This document shows positions 20,137 through 36,436 of a stretch of 64,000 nucleotides of DNA, piece by piece; position 1 is the first letter of the stretch, and each line of letters starts with the position of its first letter. Position numbers and translations under genes: made by a program. The notes below the pieces were generated by a model, which worked only from the letters and a program-made list of their open reading frames with translations, was not told where the DNA came from and did no database searches. The DNA comes from an uncultured Planctomycetia bacterium (lineage in GTDB: Bacteria > Omnitrophota > Gorgyraeia > Duberdicusellales > 4484-171): NCBI GenBank assembly GCA_964629655.1, contig CAZVQU010000001.1, positions 420,056 through 484,055 of the forward strand, in the 5' to 3' direction.

Positions 20137-23100
20137 TCACTCCTCGCTCGCGCAGCGCTCCAGGGAAATAATGTTAAACGTAAGACCGGCAGCATCTTTG
20201 AATTCCTGGACCATGCGCGCACCGAGGATCTGGGTTACGTTCCCAAAACCTCCTGAAATTTCTACGCTGGTCGTTAAATCAATTCCTCCTTTGGTGGCAC
20301 TCAGTGCTGACGATACAGACATCTGTTGATTACCCTCAACGTAATGATACACCGAATCATACTTCGGGGGTAAGTTAGAACGTGAAGGACGCTTTTGCGG
20401 TTCACGCGCAAACGCTAACTGAGGAAACTGAATATCCGGACGACGATTGACTATCTTTAACACTAGATCTGACCTGTCCGTCTGCTCGTCAAGGTATTTC
20501 ATGCGTCCGGGCACATAAAAATACTGCTTACCGGGGACGTTGAGCCGGTTAAAGAACTTTTCTTTACTCATACCTTCAATGGAAAAACCTTCAATCAGGC
20601 TAAAGAATGCGACACCATCTTTTTCCAGCACCCGCTTTACTTCACTAATTAAGACATGCTTATTCTTTAGATACACACCGACGGCGACCGGAACTAATAC
20701 TCCTAAGAATTCACCATCTTCGTAAGGCAGGCCGTTCTCAACATCCCAGAGCTTTAATCTACTGCGAAAATCATGCATAAACCGATCAAACAGCATTTCG
20801 CGGGCTTCAAAGCTTACCGCGTTGATTCTTTGCTTCATCAAGCCATAATTTGGTAAATACAACTCTTCTTTATTGATGAATTGTAATTCAATATTAGGAA
20901 AATTTTCCTGGATATCCTGAACAACAACCCCGGCGCCCACCCCGATAATCAGTAACTTCTTAGGACTTTCCTTTGTCGAGCGGCGATTAAGTTCATCAAG
21001 GAATTGTGAAACTTCCCCTTCAAAAATACGATCATCGACCCAAAGCCCGCGGGTAGTATTATTCATCCCGTAAGGATTCTTAATTGAAGATGAGGCTGCG
21101 CTACCGCCGGTGATACTCAAAGGTTGCTGGTAATCATCACTTTGCTTTATTTCTCCCCGCGGCCGCACATCCCGTAAAGAAATATTCTTAATGACCCTTA
21201 CATATTCCGGCCACCCTCCACCTTGCTCTGCATTCTCAGCGATGTATTTTATGGCTTTACTGTATACCGATGAAAATTGGCTCTGATCGATACTATATTT
21301 ACGCATTAGTAATGCTACCTGAAGGTTCACATCTGCGGAAACTCTGGCACCAATTTCATGATGTTCTGAGTAATGATCATAGGGCTCCAATATGTCATCG
21401 GTCAACCGAGCAGTGGGAACCAGCGACAAGGTACCGTATGTGCCCAACACCTGATTGCGGGCCGATTGAAACTCTTCACTGCTTGTATCCAGTTGCAATA
21501 GTTTCCTTTTGTGCACAGAGGTATCAAACGTTGCCTCCTGTTCGATAAATCCTCCCAGATAATAGAGTTCCGACGGCGTAAGAAAGGTAATAATCCCGGG
21601 AATACTTTCTCCGGAACTTGTTAATAATTGTCGCAGGCGCCGATAGCCAAGAACCCGCTCTAACCATGATAACGTTTGTTCAGTTGGAAAATTAGTATTT
21701 TTTAACACCTCCTTGGCAAGTTCTGTGCGATGATAGGCATAGGTAAGCACTTCCGAGAAATGATGAATAAAGCTAGCCCGGTTCGCCAGCGCAAAACCAA
21801 ATCGATCAGCAAATTCATGATTAACTTGTTTGTCTTTCTCATTGTCAATAACAAATCCTTTATATCCTTGACTATTCTCAAGGATAAGGAACTCATACAA
21901 ATGTGCGATCTCACTACTTAAACTGAATGCACCTCCCTGTATGCTCACTTCCGTAATCATCGCCAATGGTGATTGGAGGGAAATATTGTCACGGTTAAGC
22001 AAACCAGTAGAAAATGATCCACCACCCCAGGGATTACTCATATAAAAATACCATCGATGACGATGCATGAATCCCTTGGGCAATAACGCTAGCACCGAAT
22101 CATCCCATAACCGCAGATACTGCGCATAAGCCAAACCCCAGAGAAAATCTCCTAAATCATCTTGGTTTATTTCCTGCTGTCGTAATATGCCCTTGATTTT
22201 TTCTGCCTCCCGAACAGAACGTGCTCGATTTCCTCCAGGAACAAGCGATTCGTTTAATGCAAGCATTAAAAGATCCTGGACACCCATTGCCTGTATTTCT
22301 CGATCACTATAGTATCCATTCTGTCTTGCTTTGTGACGAATGATGGGAACTACAACTGTATCTATCCATGATTGATACCCGCCAACCATATCACCAGTTA
22401 CCAGACTGATTAAAGCATTTTCTGCCTCAACAGAGGATATTACTTCGTCTCTGGCCAGTCTTACCAGGAGAGAAAGACAACCATGAAAGAGCTTCGTCAT
22501 TTCGTCTTTTCGATCATAATCTTTCATAGTATTGATTTCTCTCATGCGATTAACGTAAGTCTCAACCGTTGCCACACTCGATACGGGCACAACTTCAAAC
22601 AGGACAAACATATTCCAATATTTTCTATACGTATCCACCTGCGCTGCCATCAGCCGCAATATGTCCTCTAAAACTTTAGCATCACCCCTCCACTTATGTG
22701 TCGTTCCCACAAACGCATAAAACAAGCGCTTCATCGAATCATCCTGGCAGGCGACAGGCAACGGAACCACTTTTAAAAGAATTGCTCTTCTTTGAGGAGA
22801 GAGGCGACTTAATTGATGAAAAACTTCGCTAACATAGTAATCAGATATGAGCTTTCTAAAAATAGTAGCAAGACTTACATCGCTTCCCAAAACAGTTTTC
22901 CATATATCAACTCCCCCCGGTACCGACGTTATTTTCCCTTGTGAGAATCCAATGTAATTTAAGGTGGGAATCAAATTGTAACTAATATTCGCTACATGCT
23001 TACTGTTCATCCAGGCATAGGCATCAATGTGATCGAGAACAAATAATTGTTTCTCTAGATTTATCTTGGACAGAGGGGTAATGATGTATTCTTTGAATTT

Positions 23101-25293
23101 CTTAAGTTCTTCTCGTGAATTTATCTCTCCTTCAATACTGATGGCAATCCTTTGCCGAACAACATCATCAAACTCACTAAGCAACGCTTCTTTTTCAACG
23201 GCAATGCGAGCCTGTTCATCCGGATAACGCACATAAATATCAACACCTGATAAATAATGTGACGGTTCGTTCGTTTCCCATGTCTTGTACAAAACATCCT
23301 GCGAGAAGGGAGCATCGGGCGTAACGTTAACTGCAAAAGGCTTGACCGCTAAAGATGTTTTCTCAGCATAGGCGTTAATTTTATCAAATACTGCAACCGG
23401 ATCGATCCCTACAAGATATTCGGTAGTATACGTTTCCTGAATGACCAATTTTACCTTATCGCCTAAGGCAGTTTTGAGCACTCTCCCTGCAGTATCAATA
23501 TTTGCCTTCTTATAATCGCTGAACCCTGCAGCGACGTGCCTACTACCGGCAAAGCCGATGATCTTTGCATGAGGATTCTTTTTTAATATTTCAAAGACAT
23601 GTAAGGCCATCCCTTCATCGACCGTCACTCGCTCTCCCTGAGCATTCGTTACATACCCATACTCATCTCCCATGCCAGGAACGGTTGTATGTGCGGTACG
23701 TGGATCAAAAGCAGTCACCTTGATACCGGCGCTGCGAGCAGCACTGAAAATATCTTCATAGGCCGCAAAAGCTGCTTCAGGAAATCCCACGGGTATGTCG
23801 GAATAAATAATTCCGTCAAGCATCCTTGGGTTACCGCTTTTCATGTAAAGATCGATGTACTCTTGATACTGCTCGTCTATCTCAAGAACGATATCGGTCA
23901 ATCCGCGGTCCCGCATGATACTCATTACATTAACCATGACATTCTTATGATCTACACTGGAATGTTCTTCACCAAGCATAACCACCTGCGCTCCTTGTTC
24001 AAAAAGATCAACGATAGTCTGGGTGATGTTTGTCCGGGCGTTTTGTTCAATGTACTGCATCACTGATGCTTCAGAGGCTAATATCGGCTCGGGCACTGTC
24101 AGCGTAAGTGTTTTAACCGGAGCGATGCTACATGCAGTAAGAAACATCGTTCCCAGTGTGAAGAATGTCCGACGCGTCATGCGTATTGGCGATGAACTCA
24201 CCGAGACATTGAGCCACTCTTCGGAATCAGAAAATCCCAGGCCACCGGAAAAGTACCTCCGTTTGATTTGCCTTCGTTCATAGGGATCGTAATCTTTTCG
24301 TATGTAATTATAAATGCCTTTCTTAAAGGACTCGACATACTGGTCATAAATCGTGTTCTTTATATCTTTGTCTTCTATGTCGATACCGGTTACCTTATTT
24401 TTATCGATGTAATATTGATAAATTGAATTTCTTAATTTCTGCTTAAACCAGGCCGCCAGAATGACCGAATGATATATCTGCCTGAGCCTGGCAAAATGTT
24501 GTTTATGGTTTACTTCCCCTGAGAGTTCGGGAAGGATAGTTTCTTTCATGATGCAGGAAGTCACTTTATTGATTTGCTCGGCCTGGGTAAGTGGCTTCTC
24601 TTGCTGTTCGCTGTGGCGGGAGAGTGCAAGATAATCTTCTTCGAGAAGAACTTTTAAACTGGCGTCGGTAATCATGGCTATGGTTCCGTCTTCGATAACC
24701 TTCGCCTGTCCGGGCACAATCCAGACCTTATTAAACGTATTGACTGGAACGTTTATAGTGGCAGCAAGCTTGTATATCTCTTTATAAGTCATCTCCCAAT
24801 AGTCCTTACCGGTAGCAGTATCCGGATGCATGAATGATGCGATGAGTTGCTTTAATAAGTAATCCTGAGCCAGCATGTCTTTCCCCAGATCAGTGACGCC
24901 TAAGCTATCAGGAATTATCCTGTCCTGTTCATAAGGAGAAAGATTCACCCATAAATCCTGTTCAGGGGTAGTAAGCGCTGCCAGGAAATATTTGATAAGA
25001 TCGGAGGCTTCTTCTTCACTTATTTCATCCTTATCCTGGGTATCAATAACGAACTGAAGTTTAAGTGGGTCCTTGGGATCAAGCTGTATGCCTTTGAGTA
25101 CAGGATAAGAATGGGTATATGAAGGAGCGAGCAACTGTTGAGCTGACGGTAGATCAAGTGCTACAGCATGGGCTTGTTCATCATTTACGCCTAATCGCTG
25201 GACATAGAAATACATGGAGCCTGCTGCAAGACAAACTGCAACATAGAGCCCTATTGCCCTAAAACCAATAGTACCTTTCTTATGGTGAGTCAT
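20137..25293 (-). CDS. Giant (1718 aa) multi-domain membrane/lipoprotein: N-terminal TM segment, internal Tat-type lipoprotein signal, ChaN/Tiki/TraB-like GxxH domain, long helical middle, C-terminal spermidine-synthase-like Rossmann methyltransferase fold
   Basis: Single uninterrupted ORF. TM helix at residues 14-31. TRRTFFTLGTMFLTAC at residue ~372 fits a Tat motif plus lipobox. Paired GxxH motifs (GEEH, GSRH) follow. C-terminal GxGxG (LLIIGVGAGVVVQD) precedes an acidic residue, as in PABS/class I methyltransferases. Confidence 0.6.
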   Translation of the reverse strand: MTHHKKGTIGFRAIGLYVAVCLAAGSMYFYVQRLGVNDEQAHAVALDLPSAQQLLAPSYTHSYPVLKGIQLDPKDPLKLQFVIDTQDKDEISEEEASDLIKYFLAALTTPEQDLWVNLSPYEQDRIIPDSLGVTDLGKDMLAQDYLLKQLIASFMHPDTATGKDYWEMTYKEIYKLAATINVPVNTFNKVWIVPGQAKVIEDGTIAMITDASLKVLLEEDYLALSRHSEQQEKPLTQAEQINKVTSCIMKETILPELSGEVNHKQHFARLRQIYHSVILAAWFKQKLRNSIYQYYIDKNKVTGIDIEDKDIKNTIYDQYVESFKKGIYNYIRKDYDPYERRQIKRRYFSGGLGFSDSEEWLNVSVSSSPIRMTRRTFFTLGTMFLTACSIAPVKTLTLTVPEPILASEASVMQYIEQNARTNITQTIVDLFEQGAQVVMLGEEHSSVDHKNVMVNVMSIMRDRGLTDIVLEIDEQYQEYIDLYMKSGNPRMLDGIIYSDIPVGFPEAAFAAYEDIFSAARSAGIKVTAFDPRTAHTTVPGMGDEYGYVTNAQGERVTVDEGMALHVFEILKKNPHAKIIGFAGSRHVAAGFSDYKKANIDTAGRVLKTALGDKVKLVIQETYTTEYLVGIDPVAVFDKINAYAEKTSLAVKPFAVNVTPDAPFSQDVLYKTWETNEPSHYLSGVDIYVRYPDEQARIAVEKEALLSEFDDVVRQRIAISIEGEINSREELKKFKEYIITPLSKINLEKQLFVLDHIDAYAWMNSKHVANISYNLIPTLNYIGFSQGKITSVPGGVDIWKTVLGSDVSLATIFRKLISDYYVSEVFHQLSRLSPQRRAILLKVVPLPVACQDDSMKRLFYAFVGTTHKWRGDAKVLEDILRLMAAQVDTYRKYWNMFVLFEVVPVSSVATVETYVNRMREINTMKDYDRKDEMTKLFHGCLSLLVRLARDEVISSVEAENALISLVTGDMVGGYQSWIDTVVVPIIRHKARQNGYYSDREIQAMGVQDLLMLALNESLVPGGNRARSVREAEKIKGILRQQEINQDDLGDFLWGLAYAQYLRLWDDSVLALLPKGFMHRHRWYFYMSNPWGGGSFSTGLLNRDNISLQSPLAMITEVSIQGGAFSLSSEIAHLYEFLILENSQGYKGFVIDNEKDKQVNHEFADRFGFALANRASFIHHFSEVLTYAYHRTELAKEVLKNTNFPTEQTLSWLERVLGYRRLRQLLTSSGESIPGIITFLTPSELYYLGGFIEQEATFDTSVHKRKLLQLDTSSEEFQSARNQVLGTYGTLSLVPTARLTDDILEPYDHYSEHHEIGARVSADVNLQVALLMRKYSIDQSQFSSVYSKAIKYIAENAEQGGGWPEYVRVIKNISLRDVRPRGEIKQSDDYQQPLSITGGSAASSSIKNPYGMNNTTRGLWVDDRIFEGEVSQFLDELNRRSTKESPKKLLIIGVGAGVVVQDIQENFPNIELQFINKEELYLPNYGLMKQRINAVSFEAREMLFDRFMHDFRSRLKLWDVENGLPYEDGEFLGVLVPVAVGVYLKNKHVLISEVKRVLEKDGVAFFSLIEGFSIEGMSKEKFFNRLNVPGKQYFYVPGRMKYLDEQTDRSDLVLKIVNRRPDIQFPQLAFAREPQKRPSRSNLPPKYDSVYHYVEGNQQMSVSSALSATKGGIDLTTSVEISGGFGNVTQILGARMVQEFKDAAGLTFNIISLERCASEE

Positions 25294-29267: not shown

Positions 29268-29342
29268 TTGGTTGCCCCGTCTGGACTCGAACCAGAAATA
29301 GCTGATCCAGAATCAGCCGTGCTACCGATTACACCACGGGGC
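29268..29342 (-). tRNA. tRNA-Gln (anticodon CUG)
   Basis: Minus-strand sequence TGCCCCGTGGTGTAATCGGTAGCACGGCTGATTCTGGATCAGCTATTTCTGGTTCGAGTCCAGACGGGGCAACCA. 7-bp acceptor stem UGCCCCG/CGGGGCA. Anticodon loop UUCUGGA. T-arm GGTTCGAGTCC. CCA is encoded. Confidence 0.85.
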
Positions 29343-29431
29343 AAGTTCCTATTATTGTAGTATTTCCAACGGGTTCTGGCAAGCATAATATAGTAATTTC
29401 CATTTGGAGACTGACAAGGCACAAACAGCCA

Positions 29432-29494: not shown

Positions 29495-29645
29495 AATAAG
29501 GGATAAATGCAATATTGACCTGTAAACATTTTCAAAATATCTTTATTATTACCTTGAAAAAATATAGAAAATATGTTACATTTTAAAGGATACTTGTGTT
29601 TGATGTTGGGAGGCGTCAAAGGCAGATTTTTGATTGGATTTTGGA

Positions 29646-31025
29646 ATGGAAAAAAAGGCACGTTTAGTAACACTTTTATTAATCTGCTTTCTGCTTCCCT
29701 TAAACATTTGGGCTGCAGCAAGCCTCTCAGTGGTTCCTCTCGAAGGAGGCAATAGCCTTCGCTTTGGAAGAATAACCTCCGACAGTACAATAAGCAAACA
29801 AGTCAGGATAAGAATTACTTCTGATTTAGGAGTAAAATACCAGGTCGAACAAAGACTGCTCGAGCCTTTGCGAAATGCTAGAGGCGAATCACTAAATGCT
29901 GATGTCTTTAATTTCTACACCTTAAGGGGCTCAAACCTAACTGGTAGCCTTTACCAAGACACACCTTACAGAGTAGATACTTTCAAAAGAATTCTTTATG
30001 TTTCAGCTGCTGCCGGTACCGGCGATTCTTTTTCAGTTATTTATTCAATTGACCCAAGTAAAATAAACATCTCGGGAAATTTCTTTGGTAGAATTTTATT
30101 TACTTTTACTCCTCTAGGCGCCGGTGGCACCCAAAGAGAAGTTATCCTTAATGTTTACTTTGAAACTGAGAAGAACTTTCAGGTAAGTCTAAGAACATCT
30201 TCTCAAAGCTCCCGAACCTTAAGACTTTCGTCAAGTAAGGATCAATTAGAGGGTTACTTACAAATTAGTGCCGAAGGTTCTTTAGGGCAAAAATACGAAG
30301 TAAAGCAAGTAGTCCAGGAGCCATTTAAAAATGAGAAGGGCGAAGTTATTCCCTTAGAGCTAGTTAAAGTATTCGCATCAAGCAGTAAAGGTCAAACCTA
30401 TGCCTCCTCTCCCACTCCTCTGGCTAGAAAGACTCTCCTGATATACGGTTCCGAGGCCCGAGGAGAAGGCGATGAAATCGTAGTTAACTTTTCTGTCAAC
30501 ACTGAAGACTTTGAAGAATTGCCGAGCGGTCATTTTAAAGCCCTAGTATTATATAATATCGAATCTCTGGGCTCTTTGATAAAAAGACTACCAGTAGATA
30601 TATCTTTAGAGATAAAGCCGATATTTGATATCGAAGTCGTCTCTGAATCTGTGGGGGGCTTATATTTTCGAAACTTAAAGCCCGACTCAGGATTAATAGA
30701 AAAAGAAATAATCATTAAAGTCCAAACTAATCTCAATCGGCCTTACAACGTTGTCCAAAATCTAAACACTCCGCTTGCTAATCAAAGCGGAAATACTATT
30801 CCTTTGCAATCCTTCCGCTTAAGAGAAGAAGAAAGTAAAGATAATCCAGGAAATATAATTTTTTCTCAATATACTCCTTTAAATTTAGGAGATACTAGAG
30901 TTTTTGCTTCTAATTCAACCGGTGATTCTTCAGAATTCAAAATCATTTATTCTTTGGAGGTTCCAAGGGACATGGTTGGCGGGGACTACTTTACAGGATT
31001 AAACTACTCTCTAGTAGAGAAATAA
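29646..31025 (+). CDS. Secreted protein with three tandem pilin-like (spore-coat-U/Csu-like) domains; candidate tip adhesin or fibre subunit
   Basis: Start set at the ATG at 29646 (MEKKARLVTLLLICFLLPLNIWAAAS signal peptide). The ORF-track start at 29634 is a TTG. Three ~140-aa repeats each carry a conserved core: LGVKYQVEQRLLEPLRNARGESL, LGQKYEVKQVVQEPFKNEKGEVIPL and LNRPYNVVQNLNTPLANQSGNTIPL. Confidence 0.6.
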   Translation: MEKKARLVTLLLICFLLPLNIWAAASLSVVPLEGGNSLRFGRITSDSTISKQVRIRITSDLGVKYQVEQRLLEPLRNARGESLNADVFNFYTLRGSNLTGSLYQDTPYRVDTFKRILYVSAAAGTGDSFSVIYSIDPSKINISGNFFGRILFTFTPLGAGGTQREVILNVYFETEKNFQVSLRTSSQSSRTLRLSSSKDQLEGYLQISAEGSLGQKYEVKQVVQEPFKNEKGEVIPLELVKVFASSSKGQTYASSPTPLARKTLLIYGSEARGEGDEIVVNFSVNTEDFEELPSGHFKALVLYNIESLGSLIKRLPVDISLEIKPIFDIEVVSESVGGLYFRNLKPDSGLIEKEIIIKVQTNLNRPYNVVQNLNTPLANQSGNTIPLQSFRLREEESKDNPGNIIFSQYTPLNLGDTRVFASNSTGDSSEFKIIYSLEVPRDMVGGDYFTGLNYSLVEK

Positions 31026-31058: not shown

Positions 31059-31685
31059 GTGAAAAAATTGATTGCAGCCTTAATGTTAATCTCACTTGTA
31101 AGTTCAGCGAGTATTTGTTCAGCAGGAACTACTGCTAGTGTAGGTGTTCAGGCTACTGTTCCACAACAGTTGGAGCTAAGTAGCTGGATTCGCTATGCTC
31201 CTCCGGGAGTTGATCCTTACGGAACAGGCTCAGGGGATGCCGCAAGCTTAGACTTTGGTACTCTTGCCTTTGATGATACCTATCATACATGGACAGCCTC
31301 GAAATACTTTACTGTATTTCTTCTGGCTAGCTCATCAGGAAGGCCCTATAGGATTGAACAGACAAATACAGGTTTTGTTCTTGGCAGCACTACTCTTGAT
31401 AACAACTTGATTTTGACTCCTGACTATCAGTCAGGTGACGAGATAGTATCAGGAACTGCTCAAGGAAGCATACCTTCAGGAGACAGTTTCGGTGCTAAGA
31501 CATTAGCTTTGGGAACCAACAAGATAATCTACAATGGCACCTCAGGGCTATCAAGAATAGCAAGAGCATACTATGGTCTAGCTACAGGGGATGCTGGTGA
31601 GCCCTCGGGGGCAGAACCAATCACTGGAGACCAAATCTCAGGAACATATGCGGGAACAATAACTTTTTCTGTTGTTCTCCAATAA
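31059..31685 (+). CDS. Secreted single-domain pilin-like subunit (spore coat protein U / CsuA/B-like)
   Basis: GTG start at 31059, preceded by an AAGGAGGTG RBS. Signal peptide. The RPYRIEQ core is shared with the repeats of the upstream protein. Gly/Ser/Thr-rich. The C-terminal alternating strand GTYAGTITFSVVLQ is characteristic of SCPU-domain donor-strand pilins. Confidence 0.55.
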   Translation: MKKLIAALMLISLVSSASICSAGTTASVGVQATVPQQLELSSWIRYAPPGVDPYGTGSGDAASLDFGTLAFDDTYHTWTASKYFTVFLLASSSGRPYRIEQTNTGFVLGSTTLDNNLILTPDYQSGDEIVSGTAQGSIPSGDSFGAKTLALGTNKIIYNGTSGLSRIARAYYGLATGDAGEPSGAEPITGDQISGTYAGTITFSVVLQ

Positions 31686-31842
31686 AGTTAAGTTGTAGAG
31701 ACATAGTACAAAACTTTTAAAGAAATCTACTACACAAAGATGGCCACCGGTAGATTATCCAGATTAACACAGATATTCTGTGTTAATCTCGGTTTTAAAA
31801 ATACTGTGGCCGTCTTTGTGTATAGTACAAAGAAGGAGATAA

Positions 31843-32640
31843 GTGCTTAAGAAAACTATTTTCCTATTTTTACTGTTTTTGTTGCCTTTCTCATCGTTTG
31901 CCTTAAGGATTGATAACCCTAAGATCAAACTCCAACTTTCTCCAAGCGACAATTACAGTGGAACTATTATTGTAGACAACCCCTCTAGTGATGAAGTCTC
32001 GGTAAAGACATACTTAGAAGACTTTACCTATGTCACTCCTTTTGATGGCGCTAAAGAGTTTTATGCTCAGGGCACAACAAAAGCATCCCTTTCGAAATGG
32101 ATAACCTTTTCTCCTCGAGAGTTCACATTGCAACCTTTTTCACGCCGAAGAGTTAATTTTTCAATAAGTCCTAAGTCTTCTTTCAATTCTGTTCGTTGTG
32201 GAGTTCTATTCTTTGAGACATCTATCGGAACTACCTATGAGAATGGCAAGGCGATAAATGTTGTGGGCAGAATCGGTTCTTTATTCTTTGTTGAACCAAA
32301 AAATAAGAGCAAGCGAGCAACTTTCACTAGTATTAAAGGCCTCTCTCATTCTTTAACCGGTGATTTTACTAACTCCGGTAATTCATTTATCCATGCTCAA
32401 GGCACATCCTATACCATAGATAACGAAGGCATGGTTAAAGATAGAAGTGTTTTAGAAGAAAGTTACCTTTTACCTAATGATAGTACCAAATTGCAAATGG
32501 CTTTATCTAGCGATTTAGCACCTGGCACTTACACGATGGTAATTACTTTTGATTTAGAGGAGGATGATTCTTTGGTTAAAGAAATTGATTTCTCTCTCTC
32601 AGGTTCAGGAAAAGTTACCGTCTTAGATGAGAGAAATTAA
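31843..32640 (+). CDS. Putative periplasmic PapD-like fibre chaperone
   Basis: Signal peptide (MLKKTIFLFLLFLLPFSSFA). N-terminal LRIDNPKIKL...GTIIVDNPSSDEVSV resembles the first β-strands and conserved Arg of Ig-fold pilus chaperones. The ~240-aa mature length fits two Ig-like lobes. Its stop overlaps the downstream start (TAATG). Confidence 0.45.
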   Translation: MLKKTIFLFLLFLLPFSSFALRIDNPKIKLQLSPSDNYSGTIIVDNPSSDEVSVKTYLEDFTYVTPFDGAKEFYAQGTTKASLSKWITFSPREFTLQPFSRRRVNFSISPKSSFNSVRCGVLFFETSIGTTYENGKAINVVGRIGSLFFVEPKNKSKRATFTSIKGLSHSLTGDFTNSGNSFIHAQGTSYTIDNEGMVKDRSVLEESYLLPNDSTKLQMALSSDLAPGTYTMVITFDLEEDDSLVKEIDFSLSGSGKVTVLDERN

Positions 32641-35516
32641 TGCCGAAAAAAATCAAAATTCTTTTATTGTTTGTAGTTTTTTTATTTTGCTTCTCCTCTA
32701 TTCTCTATCCCCAATCTCGCTCTTGTAGGTATTTATTAGAGCTGGGTAAGTGGGAATTAAGAGACGACAACTACGAAAAAGCCCTCCATTACTTTCAAAT
32801 TGCTCAATTAATAGATCCCGAATCAAAGGAAGCCCTGTCTTATATTAACTTAATAAAACGGGCGCTTGAAGGCAGAATTATCCGTGATGAGATCTATGAC
32901 GAAGAAGAGATTGCCAGCTCAACAGAATCTATTCTGGAAGGAAAAAGCAAAGATAAAGAAAAGCAACGAGAAGTAATAAGTGATACTCTGACTTCTTGGG
33001 AGAAAAAAATAGCTGGAGGGAAAAAAGATCAGGAAAAAATTACTGTCTTCCCCCCTCTATACCTTAAAACTATCCAAGAGATCGAGGAAGAAAAAGGAAT
33101 CAAAGAAATAAAAGATACGGAAAAAGTAAAAAGAAAAGTAGCTCCTCATAAGAAAAAAACAGCTAAAAAAGAAGAAATAATCTACCTTACCTCTGAAACT
33201 AGGGATGAATTCCCTCTAACCATAAAAATCGCCCCCGGTGAATCATTCAAAATTGACTCTGAAACCTTAAAAAGATTTCTGATAGTCTCTCCGGGAGTAA
33301 TTAAAGTAGATAAGCTTGCCATTAATGCCTTGGGCGTCACTGCTGCCAGCCTCGGCTCTTCATTCTTACATGTTTGGGATGACGTCGGCAGGTGGACCTT
33401 TAATATAAAAATTATCCCTCCACGAGTAGTAGTGAAAACCGAACAACTTTGGGAAAAGCCTGATGGCTTTAAATTCATGTATAGTGCTGACTACAGCCAA
33501 TATTACAGAGGTGATAAGTTTGCTGACATGGAAAGGCAAACACTCACCTATGATGAAGGAGCAGCTATCGTCGGACCAACCCCCTATGGGGAGTTAGATG
33601 CTTCTGTAAATTGGTCACGGCTTAATAAGCAAAAGGAAGTAACCGGCTATACTGTAGGCTTAAGCGAAGGGCGTTTCTTGAATTTTAAAGATTTTTATAT
33701 CCGTGGTTTTGATTTTAGAGAAACTTTCTCGTCTTTATCATTCCCAGGAGAAACCTTAAAGGGTGTAGTCTTTAGATCACCGGCTTTTCATGAAAAAATC
33801 GAATATACTCTGCTTTACGGGCGACAAAAGCAATACTCATCAGGAATCATCTCTCCAGGGGTTATCGAAGAAGAAGACTCTTATATTGAAGGCTTACGGC
33901 TGAGCTTGTTCCCGCATAATAAACATAAGTTTTTCTTTAACTATGCTCACGGATTTGGCGAAGACAGAGAAGATTATCTTAAAGACGAGGTTTTCTCTTT
34001 CCAAAGTGAGCACAATTTCGGAAATCTTGATATCATAACTGAAGTAGCTTCAGATAAAGACTCTATAGGAGCCAACTTCTCTTCAAAAATCCAGATGCCC
34101 AAACTTAACTTAAATCTTTCTTTTCGCGATATCGAGAAGGATTTTGTTACTATCTCAGGTAGACCGCCTAACACCGGAGAAATTGGAGCTATCGCTGGTC
34201 TCGATTGGAATCCAAACGATAAGGTCTCCCTAAACTCAAGCCTAGATGTCTATAGAGATAGAGAGTTTTTTAATCCTGAAAACGAAAATGACCCTAATTT
34301 TAATTGGAATAATTATTTGAATATACGCTTATCACCCACTTCGAACTTAGCTACAAGTCTGTATTATATTAATTCTCCAGGCCTTCTCTCACCCCAAAGA
34401 AGTTTAAATGCCACTACTACCTATAGCAAAAGGTTTAACTGTAACCTCTTTGGTGATAGATCAATTAATACATTCCTTGGCTACAATTACCAGAGGAGCA
34501 TTAATCCCCTTTCACCGACCTCTGACTACAGACGTGACGGCATACTTAGCGGCTTACGCCTTCAATTAGCCGGAGACCTATATTATTACCTTAACTATAA
34601 CTTCTCCTGGGTAGATGAACTCTATACTGGTGAGGAATCAAAACCTTCGGTTACTGAGACCGGATTAGACTTCTACCACACCTTTAATCCTAATTTATCT
34701 TCTAACTTACGCTTAAGTTACCGTGATGAAGAGAATGCATCTGCTCTACACTCCTTCCTCTCTGGAGAAGATAGCCTCGAAGGAAGCCTAAACCTTACTT
34801 ACAGCCCTAAAAAAGGTGCTGAATTCTTCCTTGATGGAAGAGTAAGAAATGTCTGGGCCGAGAATGCTGGCACAGAAGAGTTTATCGAAGCTGACATACG
34901 ACTAGGAGCACGCTTATCCTGGGACAACTTCTTCAGCTGGTCACCGGAGACAACAATACAAGGTTTTGTATTCAAAGACTCTAATGGTAACGGGGAAAAA
35001 GATGATGATGAAATTGGAATACCTGGAGTAGAAATAATTGCCGGCCCTAAAAAAGTTACCAGCACCAAAAGTGGAAAATTTACTACTACAGTAAAGGCAA
35101 AAAGGATAATTGCTAATATCAACTTTAATAGTGCACCTAAAGGCTATATTTTAACTACTCCGGCATCTTTTAATTTAGATACCTCTACTGGCGAAAAACA
35201 TAACATAAATTTTGGCATATCTCCTCAATCAGGAATATACGGAGTTGTTTTTTACGACTCTAACGGAAATAATAAGCTGGATAAAAAAGATACTACTATT
35301 TCGGGAGTAAAGATAATCCTCAATCAGAAGAAAAAAACAGTTACCAATAGCGAAGGTGTTTATTTCTTCGGTGGTATTCCTACCGGAACCCATAGCTTAA
35401 CCTTTGATGTTAATTCTATACCTTTAGAATATTTGCCTAAGGTCTCGATAAAAAAAGAGGTAGATGTTTCTGAAGGACTTACCTACACCTACCATATCCC
35501 CTTGCAAAAGAAATAA
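32640..35516 (+). CDS. Large outer-membrane assembly-platform-like protein: TPR + CpaC/secretin-type N-terminal domain + Tyr/Asn/Ser-rich β-barrel-like region + two C-terminal CnaB/SdrD-B-like β-sandwich domains (usher analogue?)
   Basis: Signal peptide. TPR helix pair. A K/E-rich linker. GESFKIDSETLKRFLIVSPGVIKVD...LGSSFLHVWDDVGRWTFNIKI matches the pilus-formation N-domain found at the N-terminus of CpaC-type secretins. About 450 aa of alternating-polarity β-strands end in Y/F/W-rich strands. Two C-terminal repeats (GFVFKDSNGNGEKDDDEIGIPGVEI, GVVFYDSNGNNKLDKKDTTISGVKI) follow. Confidence 0.55.
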   Translation: MPKKIKILLLFVVFLFCFSSILYPQSRSCRYLLELGKWELRDDNYEKALHYFQIAQLIDPESKEALSYINLIKRALEGRIIRDEIYDEEEIASSTESILEGKSKDKEKQREVISDTLTSWEKKIAGGKKDQEKITVFPPLYLKTIQEIEEEKGIKEIKDTEKVKRKVAPHKKKTAKKEEIIYLTSETRDEFPLTIKIAPGESFKIDSETLKRFLIVSPGVIKVDKLAINALGVTAASLGSSFLHVWDDVGRWTFNIKIIPPRVVVKTEQLWEKPDGFKFMYSADYSQYYRGDKFADMERQTLTYDEGAAIVGPTPYGELDASVNWSRLNKQKEVTGYTVGLSEGRFLNFKDFYIRGFDFRETFSSLSFPGETLKGVVFRSPAFHEKIEYTLLYGRQKQYSSGIISPGVIEEEDSYIEGLRLSLFPHNKHKFFFNYAHGFGEDREDYLKDEVFSFQSEHNFGNLDIITEVASDKDSIGANFSSKIQMPKLNLNLSFRDIEKDFVTISGRPPNTGEIGAIAGLDWNPNDKVSLNSSLDVYRDREFFNPENENDPNFNWNNYLNIRLSPTSNLATSLYYINSPGLLSPQRSLNATTTYSKRFNCNLFGDRSINTFLGYNYQRSINPLSPTSDYRRDGILSGLRLQLAGDLYYYLNYNFSWVDELYTGEESKPSVTETGLDFYHTFNPNLSSNLRLSYRDEENASALHSFLSGEDSLEGSLNLTYSPKKGAEFFLDGRVRNVWAENAGTEEFIEADIRLGARLSWDNFFSWSPETTIQGFVFKDSNGNGEKDDDEIGIPGVEIIAGPKKVTSTKSGKFTTTVKAKRIIANINFNSAPKGYILTTPASFNLDTSTGEKHNINFGISPQSGIYGVVFYDSNGNNKLDKKDTTISGVKIILNQKKKTVTNSEGVYFFGGIPTGTHSLTFDVNSIPLEYLPKVSIKKEVDVSEGLTYTYHIPLQKK

Positions 35517-35780
35517 TTACTTTATTAACGCAGTCTTTAAAAGGACTCTCTGGCCCTCTCGGGTTACCTCCTCTATAGCTATTACTCTTTCCTCTTCGAC
35601 TATGACCCCATACTCAACCTCTTCGCTGGCCTCATCAACCTCTGTCGGTATAACAAATTCTTCATTAATCTCAACCCTTTGAGGAATAGTAAAAGAAGCT
35701 CTAACGACGGTAGTATTGCCAGCTAACACAGAAATAGGGATAATGACTAACAGCACAGAGATTAAAACATACTTACTCAT
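35517..35780 (-). CDS. Small secreted acidic protein
   Basis: 87 aa with signal peptide (MSKYVLISVLLVIIPISVLA) and a Glu/Val-rich C-terminus. Convergent with and abutting the plus-strand operon. Confidence 0.4.
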   Translation of the reverse strand: MSKYVLISVLLVIIPISVLAGNTTVVRASFTIPQRVEINEEFVIPTEVDEASEEVEYGVIVEEERVIAIEEVTREGQRVLLKTALIK

Positions 35781-36012
35781 CTTGGCCTCCTTTCTTATCC
35801 TTCATCTCTAACTTCAAATCCTGGATTATTTGTTTTTTCAGCCAAAGATCCTTAGACACATGGACTATCTCTTTAATTACATGAGAACGGGCAACTTTCT
35901 TTCCGATTGCAAAATAGAGATCTTTTACTATCTTATCGAGAAAATCCAGCTCCTCCCTATTTATGAAGGAAACTACTTTGAAAAGGATTTGTTTTTTGCT
36001 ATGTTCTTTCAT
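35773..36012 (-). CDS. Small putative DNA-binding protein (ribbon-helix-helix-like)
   Basis: 79 aa. An N-terminal alternating hydrophobic strand (KQILFKVVSF) is followed by two predicted helices. Its stop overlaps the start of the downstream small secreted protein by 8 nt. Confidence 0.3.
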   Translation of the reverse strand: MKEHSKKQILFKVVSFINREELDFLDKIVKDLYFAIGKKVARSHVIKEIVHVSKDLWLKKQIIQDLKLEMKDKKGGQDE

Positions 36013-36071: not shown

Positions 36072-36100
36072 AAAAAAACCCTAAGGCAACTATCTTAGGG
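36072..36100 (-). terminator. Rho-independent terminator (minus-strand orientation)
   Basis: Hairpin CCCTAAG-(8 nt loop)-CTTAGGG at 36079-36100. On the minus strand it is followed by a run of seven T (plus-strand A-run 36072-36078). Confidence 0.5.
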
Positions 36101-36436
36101 TTTACTAACTCCCCCCTTTGGGTAACCCCTCTATCCTGGCAGGACAGGTGGTTTTGCGTCTCCCAATTACTCGGGATTTGCCTTTGTCCGAAGAGACCTA
36201 ATTGTCAATCAGCTTACAATTAATTGATAACACATTTTTTGCAAAAAAACAAGTATATAAAAGGATAAAATTGCTTTTTTGCACTTTTACATTTAGACTA
36301 AAAAACCCAATACCTGATTGCCTTTTTTACTCTAGCTATGTTAGAAATGGGGGTTCTGGGAAAGATTTTACCTCAAAGCTGTGGGAAAAAATACCAGAAA
36401 GGTACTCATTCGGAAGTAGAGGGAGAGCAGAAAAAC

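Follow-up and report, generated by a model that had tools for sequence, protein, structure and literature searches.

The subject of this analysis is g958, the last gene of a four-gene operon (g463, g208, g265 and g958, in this order) on the plus strand of a 64,000-nucleotide stretch of DNA, hereafter the window. The window comes from an uncultured Planctomycetia bacterium placed by GTDB in the Omnitrophota (assembly GCA_964629655.1, contig CAZVQU010000001.1, positions 420,056 to 484,055 of the forward strand). A first-pass annotation, made from the letters of the window and a list of its open reading frames (ORFs), had proposed that the 958-residue ORF at 32640-35516 on the plus strand combines several recognizable domains into what could be a new outer-membrane conduit, and the ORF itself is exactly as claimed. 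Its reading frame and that of g265 share one base (32640), and g958 is translationally coupled to its neighbor. Two small genes, s87 and s79, and a riboswitch lie beyond g958 on the opposite strand (Table 1). We refer to the four operon genes as the cassette. It is the sole plus-strand block of long ORFs (at least 250 amino acids) in the window, barring one ORF that overlaps a minus-strand gene; almost all of the other genes in the window are on the minus strand.

Table 1. The cassette, the predicted parts of g958 and the adjoining elements; positions are those of the window.
Feature	Positions	Strand	Description or basis
g463, secreted; three homologous domains of ~140 amino acids; candidate tip subunit	29634..31025	+	463 amino acids
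g208, secreted, ~208 amino acids; candidate polymerizing major subunit	31059..31685	+	signal peptide, N-terminal strand
Long intergenic hairpin in the g208-g265 gap	31731..31822	+	arms 31731-31747 and 31806-31822
g265, two beta-sandwich domains; PapD/WxLIP-like chaperone candidate	31843..32640	+	265 amino acids
g958 ORF	32640..35516	+	ATG start, 958 amino acids
g958 signal peptide (residues 1-24)	32640..32711	+	sequence MPKKIKILLLFVVFLFCFSSILYP; AlphaFold2 helix at 4-17
g958 helical hairpin, tetratricopeptide repeat (TPR)-like (residues 25-78)	32712..32873	+	Pfam, family profile, AlphaFold2 helices
g958 Lys/Glu-rich disordered linker (residues 79-178)	32874..33173	+	composition, low model confidence
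g958 N-domain (residues 179-260), small beta domain of the PF13629 'pilus formation protein N-terminal' type	33174..33419	+	
g958 barrel core (residues 262-770), ~26 predicted antiparallel amphipathic strands, no plug insert	33423..34949	+	
g958 C-terminal domains 1 and 2 (residues 771-862 and 863-958), sandwiches of SdrD_B / CarboxypepD_reg type with DxNGNG-type loops	34950..35513	+	
s87, small secreted protein, convergent; abuts the g958 stop codon	35517..35780	-	87-amino-acid ORF
s79, small protein between riboswitch and s87	35773..36012	-	79-amino-acid ORF
Terminator-like hairpin directly after the aptamer	36076..36103	-	10-bp stem, then U run
Aptamer of the c-di-GMP-I riboswitch (GGC variant), preceding s79 and s87	36117..36191	-	RF03167

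Domain architecture of g958

The protein begins with a signal peptide that would be cut by signal peptidase, and all of its other parts follow in an order that recurs across a large family. Homologues with the same domain order, a search for which had been suggested along with the original annotation, are numerous: the 30 word-indexed homologues have identities of 35-100% and cover g958 nearly completely, and among the top 150 representatives at 50% identity, the majority match almost the whole g958 profile. A weak match to GSU2204 (NCBIfam, E 0.0014) is far below the cut-off of that model.

Directly after the signal peptide, the first-pass annotation had placed a TPR segment. One TPR-like hairpin is indeed real: Pfam's TPR_2 aligns to residues 30-61 (14.7 bits against a cut-off of 27), a TPR match reaches E<=0.01 in 9 of 30 family members, and designed consensus TPRs align to the family profile, each repeat weakly (i-E 0.02-0.2). 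A structural model of g958, built by AlphaFold2 with an alignment of 30 homologues (mean predicted local distance difference test, pLDDT, 79), has helices at residues 25-41, 45-58 and 63-76. There is, however, no array of at least three motifs above the Pfam threshold; what is present is a single sub-threshold motif with three modeled helices, and part of the family has neither the hairpin nor the linker that follows it, matches in those proteins beginning at about profile positions 170-190. The description of that linker as Lys/Glu-rich and of low complexity was correct, in that Lys and Glu account for 38%, and charged residues for 48%, of residues 79-178, and it is modeled as disordered (pLDDT below 50 at residues 79-105 and 126-177, i.e., over most of its length).

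The small beta domain that comes next had been likened to the N-terminal domain of the Tad secretins CpaC and RcpA. This likeness stands at the level of the protein family, where 25 of 30 homologues match PF13629 (T2SS-T3SS_pil_N), the best with 4.2e-8, but g958 taken alone matches it only below the cut-off of 23 (residues 194-256; 16.8 bits, E 0.0057), and a profile of the N-domain by itself, compared with PDB sequences, reaches the secretin RcpA only at E 0.7. A precomputed PF13629 match exists for 9 of the 30 homologues, some of which are named by NCBI as 'pilus assembly protein N-terminal domain-containing'. Across the g958 family, this domain carries a near-invariant motif, GSTFLHVWDxxGRWTF.

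If g958 were a divergent secretin-type or Tad-pilus outer-membrane component, the family-wide PF13629 match would be expected, and so would the weak alignment with the N-terminal part of RcpA. We find this scarcely credible: the Secretin C-domain (Pfam PF00263) is absent from g958 and from all 30 homologues, just as the first-pass annotation had it; the core is predicted to be a single-chain barrel, with no ring-forming architecture of the kind that builds the multimeric secretin gate; and neither the cassette nor its flanks contain Tad or type IV pilus genes. A secretin-like N-domain does not make g958 a secretin relative.

The core of the protein is rich in Tyr, Asn and Ser, as had been noticed, these residues making up 24.0% of positions 262-770 versus 19.7% of the whole protein, and hydrophobicity alternates along its strands as in an amphipathic beta structure. 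When secondary structure was assigned with DSSP, the model contained an unbroken series of 26 long antiparallel strands from residue 276 to residue 766, most of them with pLDDT values of 86-96, so that the barrel check proposed with the original annotation yielded a large barrel-type core predicted with high confidence. Between strands, short turns of 2-5 residues alternate with loops of up to 18 residues (the longest at 397-414), and in the model this alternation is what characterizes an outer-membrane barrel whose two ends are both periplasmic. The last strand of the barrel (up to residue 766) and the first of C-terminal domain 1 (from residue 771) are just 4 residues apart; the C-terminal domains would therefore share a side of the membrane with the N-domain, presumably the periplasmic side.

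The two C-terminal repeats, originally compared to CnaB and SdrD-B domains, are confidently recognized by Pfam: SdrD_B (PF17210) scores 48.5 bits against a gathering threshold of 29.7, in two stretches, and is present in 30 of 30 homologues. The family profile also matches the crystal structure of SdrD (10ps_A, 4.6e-7). Both domains resemble the B repeats of SdrD and the prealbumin-like CarboxypepD_reg domains, and both carry DxNGNG-type loops. Whereas the SdrD repeats build a stalk on the surface of a Gram-positive wall, those of g958 come after a barrel and probably lie in the periplasm.

Because domains of the SdrD_B/CnaB type are typical of extracellular adhesins, and because intimin and invasin likewise have a periplasmic domain, then a barrel and then Ig-like domains at the C-terminus, g958 might be taken for an adhesin of the inverse-autotransporter type, whose N-terminal part stays in the periplasm while the two SdrD_B-type calcium-loop domains are exported through their own barrel. 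This is very improbable. The 4-residue link is too short to cross the membrane back through the pore, 26 strands far exceed the 12 of such proteins, only two small passenger domains would be exported, and the chaperone-like and subunit-like genes next to g958 would be left unexplained.

Structural matches of the barrel core

When the g958 model was compared with the PDB using Foldseek, the top 11 matches were the ushers FimD and PapC, with E-values from 4.9e-20 to 2.1e-14. These alignments to full-length FimD and PapC span about 800 columns and include the domains flanking the barrel. In its predicted layout, too, g958 follows the ushers, which start with a small domain in the periplasm, continue with a large barrel made of one chain and end with two beta sandwiches, with the difference that in g958 the domains before and after the barrel belong to other Pfam families (PF13629-like and SdrD_B). 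The solved folds nearest to the barrel core are outer-membrane translocation pores.

After the ushers come TonB-dependent receptors, from E 5e-10, and then porins, with Cir, PqqU, FepA, BtuB and the Occ/OprD porins lying between 5e-10 and 1e-7; and domains of the CarboxypepD_reg type occur in SusC-like transporters. These similarities would be accounted for if g958 were a solute or nutrient channel, or a receptor resembling the TonB-dependent ones, and its neighbors were unrelated surface or periplasmic binding proteins. Such a function is quite improbable, given that the matches in question are worse than those to ushers by about 10 orders of magnitude, that Pfam finds neither the TonB-dependent receptor plug (PF07715) nor TonB_dep_Rec (PF00593) in g958 or the 30 homologues, and that no TonB box was found. 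Moreover, the CarboxypepD_reg/SdrD_B-type domains of g958 are C-terminal, not N-terminal, and its frame overlap with a chaperone-like gene and its strict synteny with two secreted orphans would not be expected of a channel. On the points given here and above, we rejected three readings, those of g958 as a secretin, as a TonB receptor and as an inverse autotransporter.

The chaperone-like gene g265

The gene upstream of g958 encodes a protein with a signal peptide and no C-terminal transmembrane helix, which is modeled as two Ig-like beta sandwiches at high confidence (pLDDT 93.7; predicted TM-score 0.83). A PapD-like chaperone has two Ig-like domains in an L shape, is secreted and lacks a membrane anchor, and the model and sequence of g265 agree with this description. 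In Foldseek searches of the PDB, its best match was WxLIP (9i1y_A, 2e-12), a protein of DUF916-DUF3324 architecture, followed by the pilus chaperone CfaA (4y2o_A, 5.7e-10, TM 0.66) and then by FimC, EcpB, YadV, Caf1M, SafB, CsuC and DraB.

In sequence comparisons, the sole PDB entry matched by the g265 family profile is the chaperone EcpB, in its F1-G1 region (E 0.013), and hhalign aligned g265 in register with six E. coli chaperones (15% probability, E 0.0017). Among 46 family members, PapD_N and PapD_C (PF00345, PF02753) were not matched at E<=0.1, whereas 22 have weak matches to WxLIP_PGBD (best 1.5e-5). By its deposited name, one homologue is a 'P pilus assembly chaperone PapD' (JGI) and another a 'DUF916' protein (NCBI).

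Compared with pilus chaperones (CfaA, FimC, EcpB, Caf1M, CsuC), g265 is likewise a secreted two-sandwich protein but is about 40 residues longer; compared with WxLIP, it is without the C-terminal transmembrane helix. WxLIP is predicted to donate a strand that completes the sandwich of a partner (PMC10599100). Both kinds of structure nearest to g265 work by strand donation to an incomplete sandwich.

Candidate subunits g463 and g208

The first gene of the cassette, g463, encodes three domains that are homologous to one another (hhalign probabilities of 99.5, 99.2 and 98.2%) and that have no match in Pfam, NCBIfam or the PDB sequences. Domains 1 and 2 are each trailed by a strand-like segment of about 20 residues (containing REVILNVYFE and LPVDISLEIK, respectively), whereas domain 3 has none: in 40 of 40 orthologues, the protein ends 3-4 residues past the motif aGnYxxxIxYSLxE. 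The last domain is in this respect a truncated version of the first two.

The second position is occupied in every locus by one or two ORFs of about 200-240 residues (a few are shorter). This g208 family is fast-diverging, with a mean column identity of 31%, and is the fastest-evolving slot of the cassette. All members have a signal peptide and, at the N-terminus, a strand with an alternating pattern, xFxVSATVPxA (in the window, GTTASVGVQATVP), and all stop 2-3 residues past GxYxGTLTVTAT, the N- and C-terminal strands being conserved above the family average. The C-terminal strand, with its G-x-aromatic-x pattern, is similar to that of g463; a kinship of g208 with the g463 domains was suspected, but hhalign did not support it (0.5-8% probability).

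In six loci (L013, L014, L015, L039, L053 and L056), two tandem paralogous g208-type genes lie between the g463 and g265 orthologues, in place of the single gene of the window, which suggests major and minor subunit variants. Fast evolution and duplication are typical of exposed major subunits. No pilin family (SCPU, DUF4402, Fimbrial and WxL included) was found in g208 or g463 with Pfam, NCBIfam or PDB sequence profiles, and none of the four operon proteins has a match in PHROGs.

Between g208 and g265 lies the long hairpin, which folds at -55.7 kcal/mol (z = -8.25), an energy equaled by 0 of 200 shuffled sequences. Its outer stem is kept in two close relatives, in one of which the inner hairpin is lost. 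Stem-loops after pilin genes set the ratio of subunits to assembly machinery in classical pilus operons, and by analogy this hairpin could do the same.

A riboswitch and two small genes beyond g958

Cyclic di-GMP (c-di-GMP) is a general signal for adhesion and biofilm formation, and a riboswitch that, by its sequence, should respond to this molecule lies just beyond the cassette, oriented convergently to g958. The aptamer matches RF03167 with 60.3 bits against a gathering threshold of 59 (E 1e-11), which assigns it to the c-di-GMP-I class (Rfam clan CL00126), and the terminator-like hairpin behind it is the probable expression platform. RF01051 or RF03167 was found at the same position in 18 of the 22 related loci scanned, with 35-75 bits. 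At two loci, L022 and L050, the cassette is accompanied by an s87-like ORF, but no c-di-GMP riboswitch reaches the gathering threshold. Because the stop codons of s87 and g958 abut, transcription reading through from the riboswitch would run antisense into g958.

Of the two genes downstream of the aptamer, s79 has no family match, occurs only in the clade of the window and is probably cytoplasmic. The other, s87, has orthologues at the same position in most loci; its signal peptide is followed by a strand like the N-terminal one of g208, by an acidic linker and, at the C-terminus, by a further conserved strand (...LLKTxVxK). In mature s87, the N-terminus reads GNTTVVRASFTIPQRVEIN and resembles that of g208, GTTASVGVQATVPQQLELS. 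When the mature s87 and g208 families were aligned with hhalign, positions 1-23 of one paired with positions 1-23 of the other (P 8.7e-4, against 0.08-0.29 in controls), and with signal peptides included the probability was 94%. Likewise, when a model of the g208 N-terminus was run over 6619 ORFs, s87-like ORFs ranked directly after the g208 family itself; the s87 of the window was not ranked.

Conservation and distribution of the cassette

Scanning species-representative genomes for g958 yielded 53 loci, 45 of which include upstream DNA. In all 45, the order is g463, the slot of about 200 residues, g265 and g958, and the genes flanking the cassette vary from locus to locus. The fixed order within differing surroundings identifies the cassette as a functional unit.

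All 53 loci are in metagenome-assembled genomes labeled Omnitrophota or, by their depositors, Planctomycetia, Planctomycetales or Elulimicrobium. Among the several genomes with a full cassette that are not named as Omnitrophota, one (L040) is Candidatus Elulimicrobium, placed by NCBI in the Patescibacteria group. A profile search with the barrel by itself retrieved 13 proteins, all from Omnitrophota and all with the same architecture. An exhaustive search with the entire g958 profile was swamped beyond the family by proteins with SdrD_B repeats, so that the restriction of the family to the Omnitrophota is provisional; a cluster look-up of ten distant g958 representatives returned no names.

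In one complete chromosome (L010; CP070807.1, 263424-277547), the g958 match begins only at residue 251, and the corresponding entry, P0019, is marked partial. There is no g463 or g265 orthologue upstream of this match, and an s87-like ORF comes after it. This copy of g958 may be truncated or decaying.

A probable fibre-assembly platform

The proposal of a new outer-membrane conduit architecture is supported by the barrel prediction and by the family-wide match of the N-domain, and the chaperone-like and subunit-like neighbors of g958 turn this conduit into an usher-like platform for fibre assembly. We consider it probable that g958 is the outer-membrane assembly and secretion platform of an Omnitrophota-specific fibre (pilus) system that acts in the manner of the chaperone-usher pathway. 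Support for this view comes from the ranking of ushers first among the fold matches, the usher-like order of the parts of g958, the fold of g265, the presence of subunit-like genes, the conservation of the cassette and the adjoining riboswitch. Ushers are encoded together with a two-domain chaperone and with subunits, and g958 lies next to a chaperone-like gene of this type and to genes that are subunit-like by sequence.

If this reading is correct, all four operon proteins would be exported by Sec, and g265 would capture subunits in the periplasm by supplying the beta strand that g208 and the final domain of g463 lack. The resulting chaperone-subunit complexes would be received by the PF13629-type N-domain of g958, which, by analogy to the N-terminal domain of ushers, may serve as their docking site. 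Subunits would then be joined as the conserved N-terminal strand of an incoming g208 displaces the strand of the chaperone, and the growing fibre would thread through the barrel of about 26 strands with the three-domain g463 leading. Because g463 lacks an N-terminal extension and ends in a seemingly incomplete domain, it would be the subunit at the tip. The two C-terminal sandwiches would hold the base of the fibre, like the C-terminal domains of FimD, and the TPR hairpin with its Lys/Glu-rich linker, missing from part of the family, could act as an optional periplasmic tether. The small protein s87, which has the g208-like N-terminal strand only and would be controlled by the riboswitch, probably modulates the growth of the fibre by capping or anchoring it.

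Several observations weigh against this interpretation. By sequence, g958 is not an usher: Usher (PF00577), PapC_N and PapC_C are found neither in g958 (E<=1) nor in the 30 homologues (E<=0.01), NCBIfam yields no usher for g958 either, and hhalign against five E. coli ushers (FimD, EcpC, HtrE, YehB and ElfC) gave a probability of 0.3%. The TM-scores between g958 and the ushers are 0.3-0.47, and the model has about 26 strands instead of 24, with no plug between strands 6 and 7. The chaperone signal of g265 is marginal by sequence (E 0.013 for EcpB; 15% by hhalign), and its best fold match, WxLIP, is an anchor on Gram-positive surfaces and not a pilus chaperone. Finally, neither g208 nor g463 is detectably related to any pilin family, nor are they to each other, and the incomplete folds ascribed to g208 and to domain 3 of g463 are read from the sequences. 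Since three defining features of ushers fail to appear (the sequence family, the 24 strands and the plug), we propose a functional analogy and not membership in the usher family. The cassette would accordingly be an analogue of the chaperone-usher pathway that is an orphan by sequence, or else a relative that has diverged from it to an extreme degree.

The main rival explanation is a barrel that houses a partner, of the LptD-LptE or MtrB-MtrA kind. Either g463 or g208 would in that event sit in or on the barrel as part of a fixed surface complex (e.g., an adhesin or a receptor), and g265 would be a single-use delivery chaperone. LptD and MtrB are both 26-strand barrels, g958 is predicted to have about as many strands and no plug, and a barrel that wide usually needs some content in its lumen. 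WxLIP, the top fold match of g265, holds its partner at the surface and feeds no polymer (PMC10599100), and no evidence of polymerization was obtained for the cassette. If a partner-housing barrel were the nearest analogue, however, we would expect LptD or MtrB among the structural matches, and both are absent from the best 50 PDB matches of g958, the first 11 of which are ushers. Nor does this model account for the N-domain and the two C-terminal sandwiches, which together are the layout of an usher, or for the rapid evolution and duplication of g208, which suit a repeated, exposed subunit; and the conserved N-terminal strand of g208 would be left without an obvious role. On balance, we judge a partner-housing barrel unlikely.

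Returning to the fibre-assembly platform, a bolder version of it would be that the Omnitrophota hold a complete donor-strand pilus pathway, either independent of the proteobacterial chaperone-usher pathway or diverged from it past recognition. It would combine a plugless usher of about 26 strands, with its secretin-type N-domain and SdrD_B-type C-terminal domains, a WxLIP-related chaperone, orphan subunits and, in s87, a strand-only protein under riboswitch control that puts its g208-like N-terminal strand into the last subunit and so stops, anchors or releases the fibre according to the level of c-di-GMP. We offer this tentatively and are inclined to doubt it in its entirety. If true, strand donation would unite the WxL surface complexes of Gram-positive bacteria with the chaperone-usher pili of Gram-negative ones, and s87 would provide the first direct control of pilus termination by a c-di-GMP riboswitch.

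Relation to known systems

Taken part by part, the cassette departs from each of the systems that it resembles. Relative to the ushers, g958 has an N-domain and C-terminal domains of different types, an additional TPR hairpin and linker, and a family that is found only in Omnitrophota-type genomes. WxL clusters, like the cassette, pair one small with one large partner protein (PMC10599100). Unlike these clusters, the cassette includes an outer-membrane barrel, and neither g208 nor g463 matches the WxL domain.

The Omnitrophota are widespread, uncultured and ultra-small bacteria that are thought to live attached to, or to prey on, other cells. To our knowledge, chaperone-usher pili are known chiefly from the Proteobacteria and from a small number of further phyla. 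The main genomic survey of the Omnitrophota discusses only type IV and Tad pili (PMC10066038), and our literature search found no paper linking this group to usher-type pili and none on this cassette, which is most likely previously undescribed. A conserved fibre system that has been overlooked by current annotation, and that lies beside a conserved c-di-GMP riboswitch, would be a strong candidate for the means by which these cells attach to hosts. The chaperone-usher principle would also be extended to the Planctomycetes-Verrucomicrobia-Chlamydiae (PVC) group, in a system whose components come from different domain families. Two questions become testable as a result, namely how such a large barrel is gated when there is no plug, and whether WxLIP and PapD-like chaperones share an origin.

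Other features of the window

The cassette is flanked in the window by housekeeping genes, among them a metH-like gene, gltX, genes for POR subunits and dxs. A tRNA gene (Rfam, 61.9 bits) at 29272-29343 lies directly upstream of the cassette on the minus strand, and the GC skew climbs locally to about 0 at the cassette. Farther upstream, on the minus strand at 20137-25293, is an ORF of 1718 amino acids, whose only Pfam match is of the ChaN/Tiki haem-binding type (residues 434-532, 38 bits).

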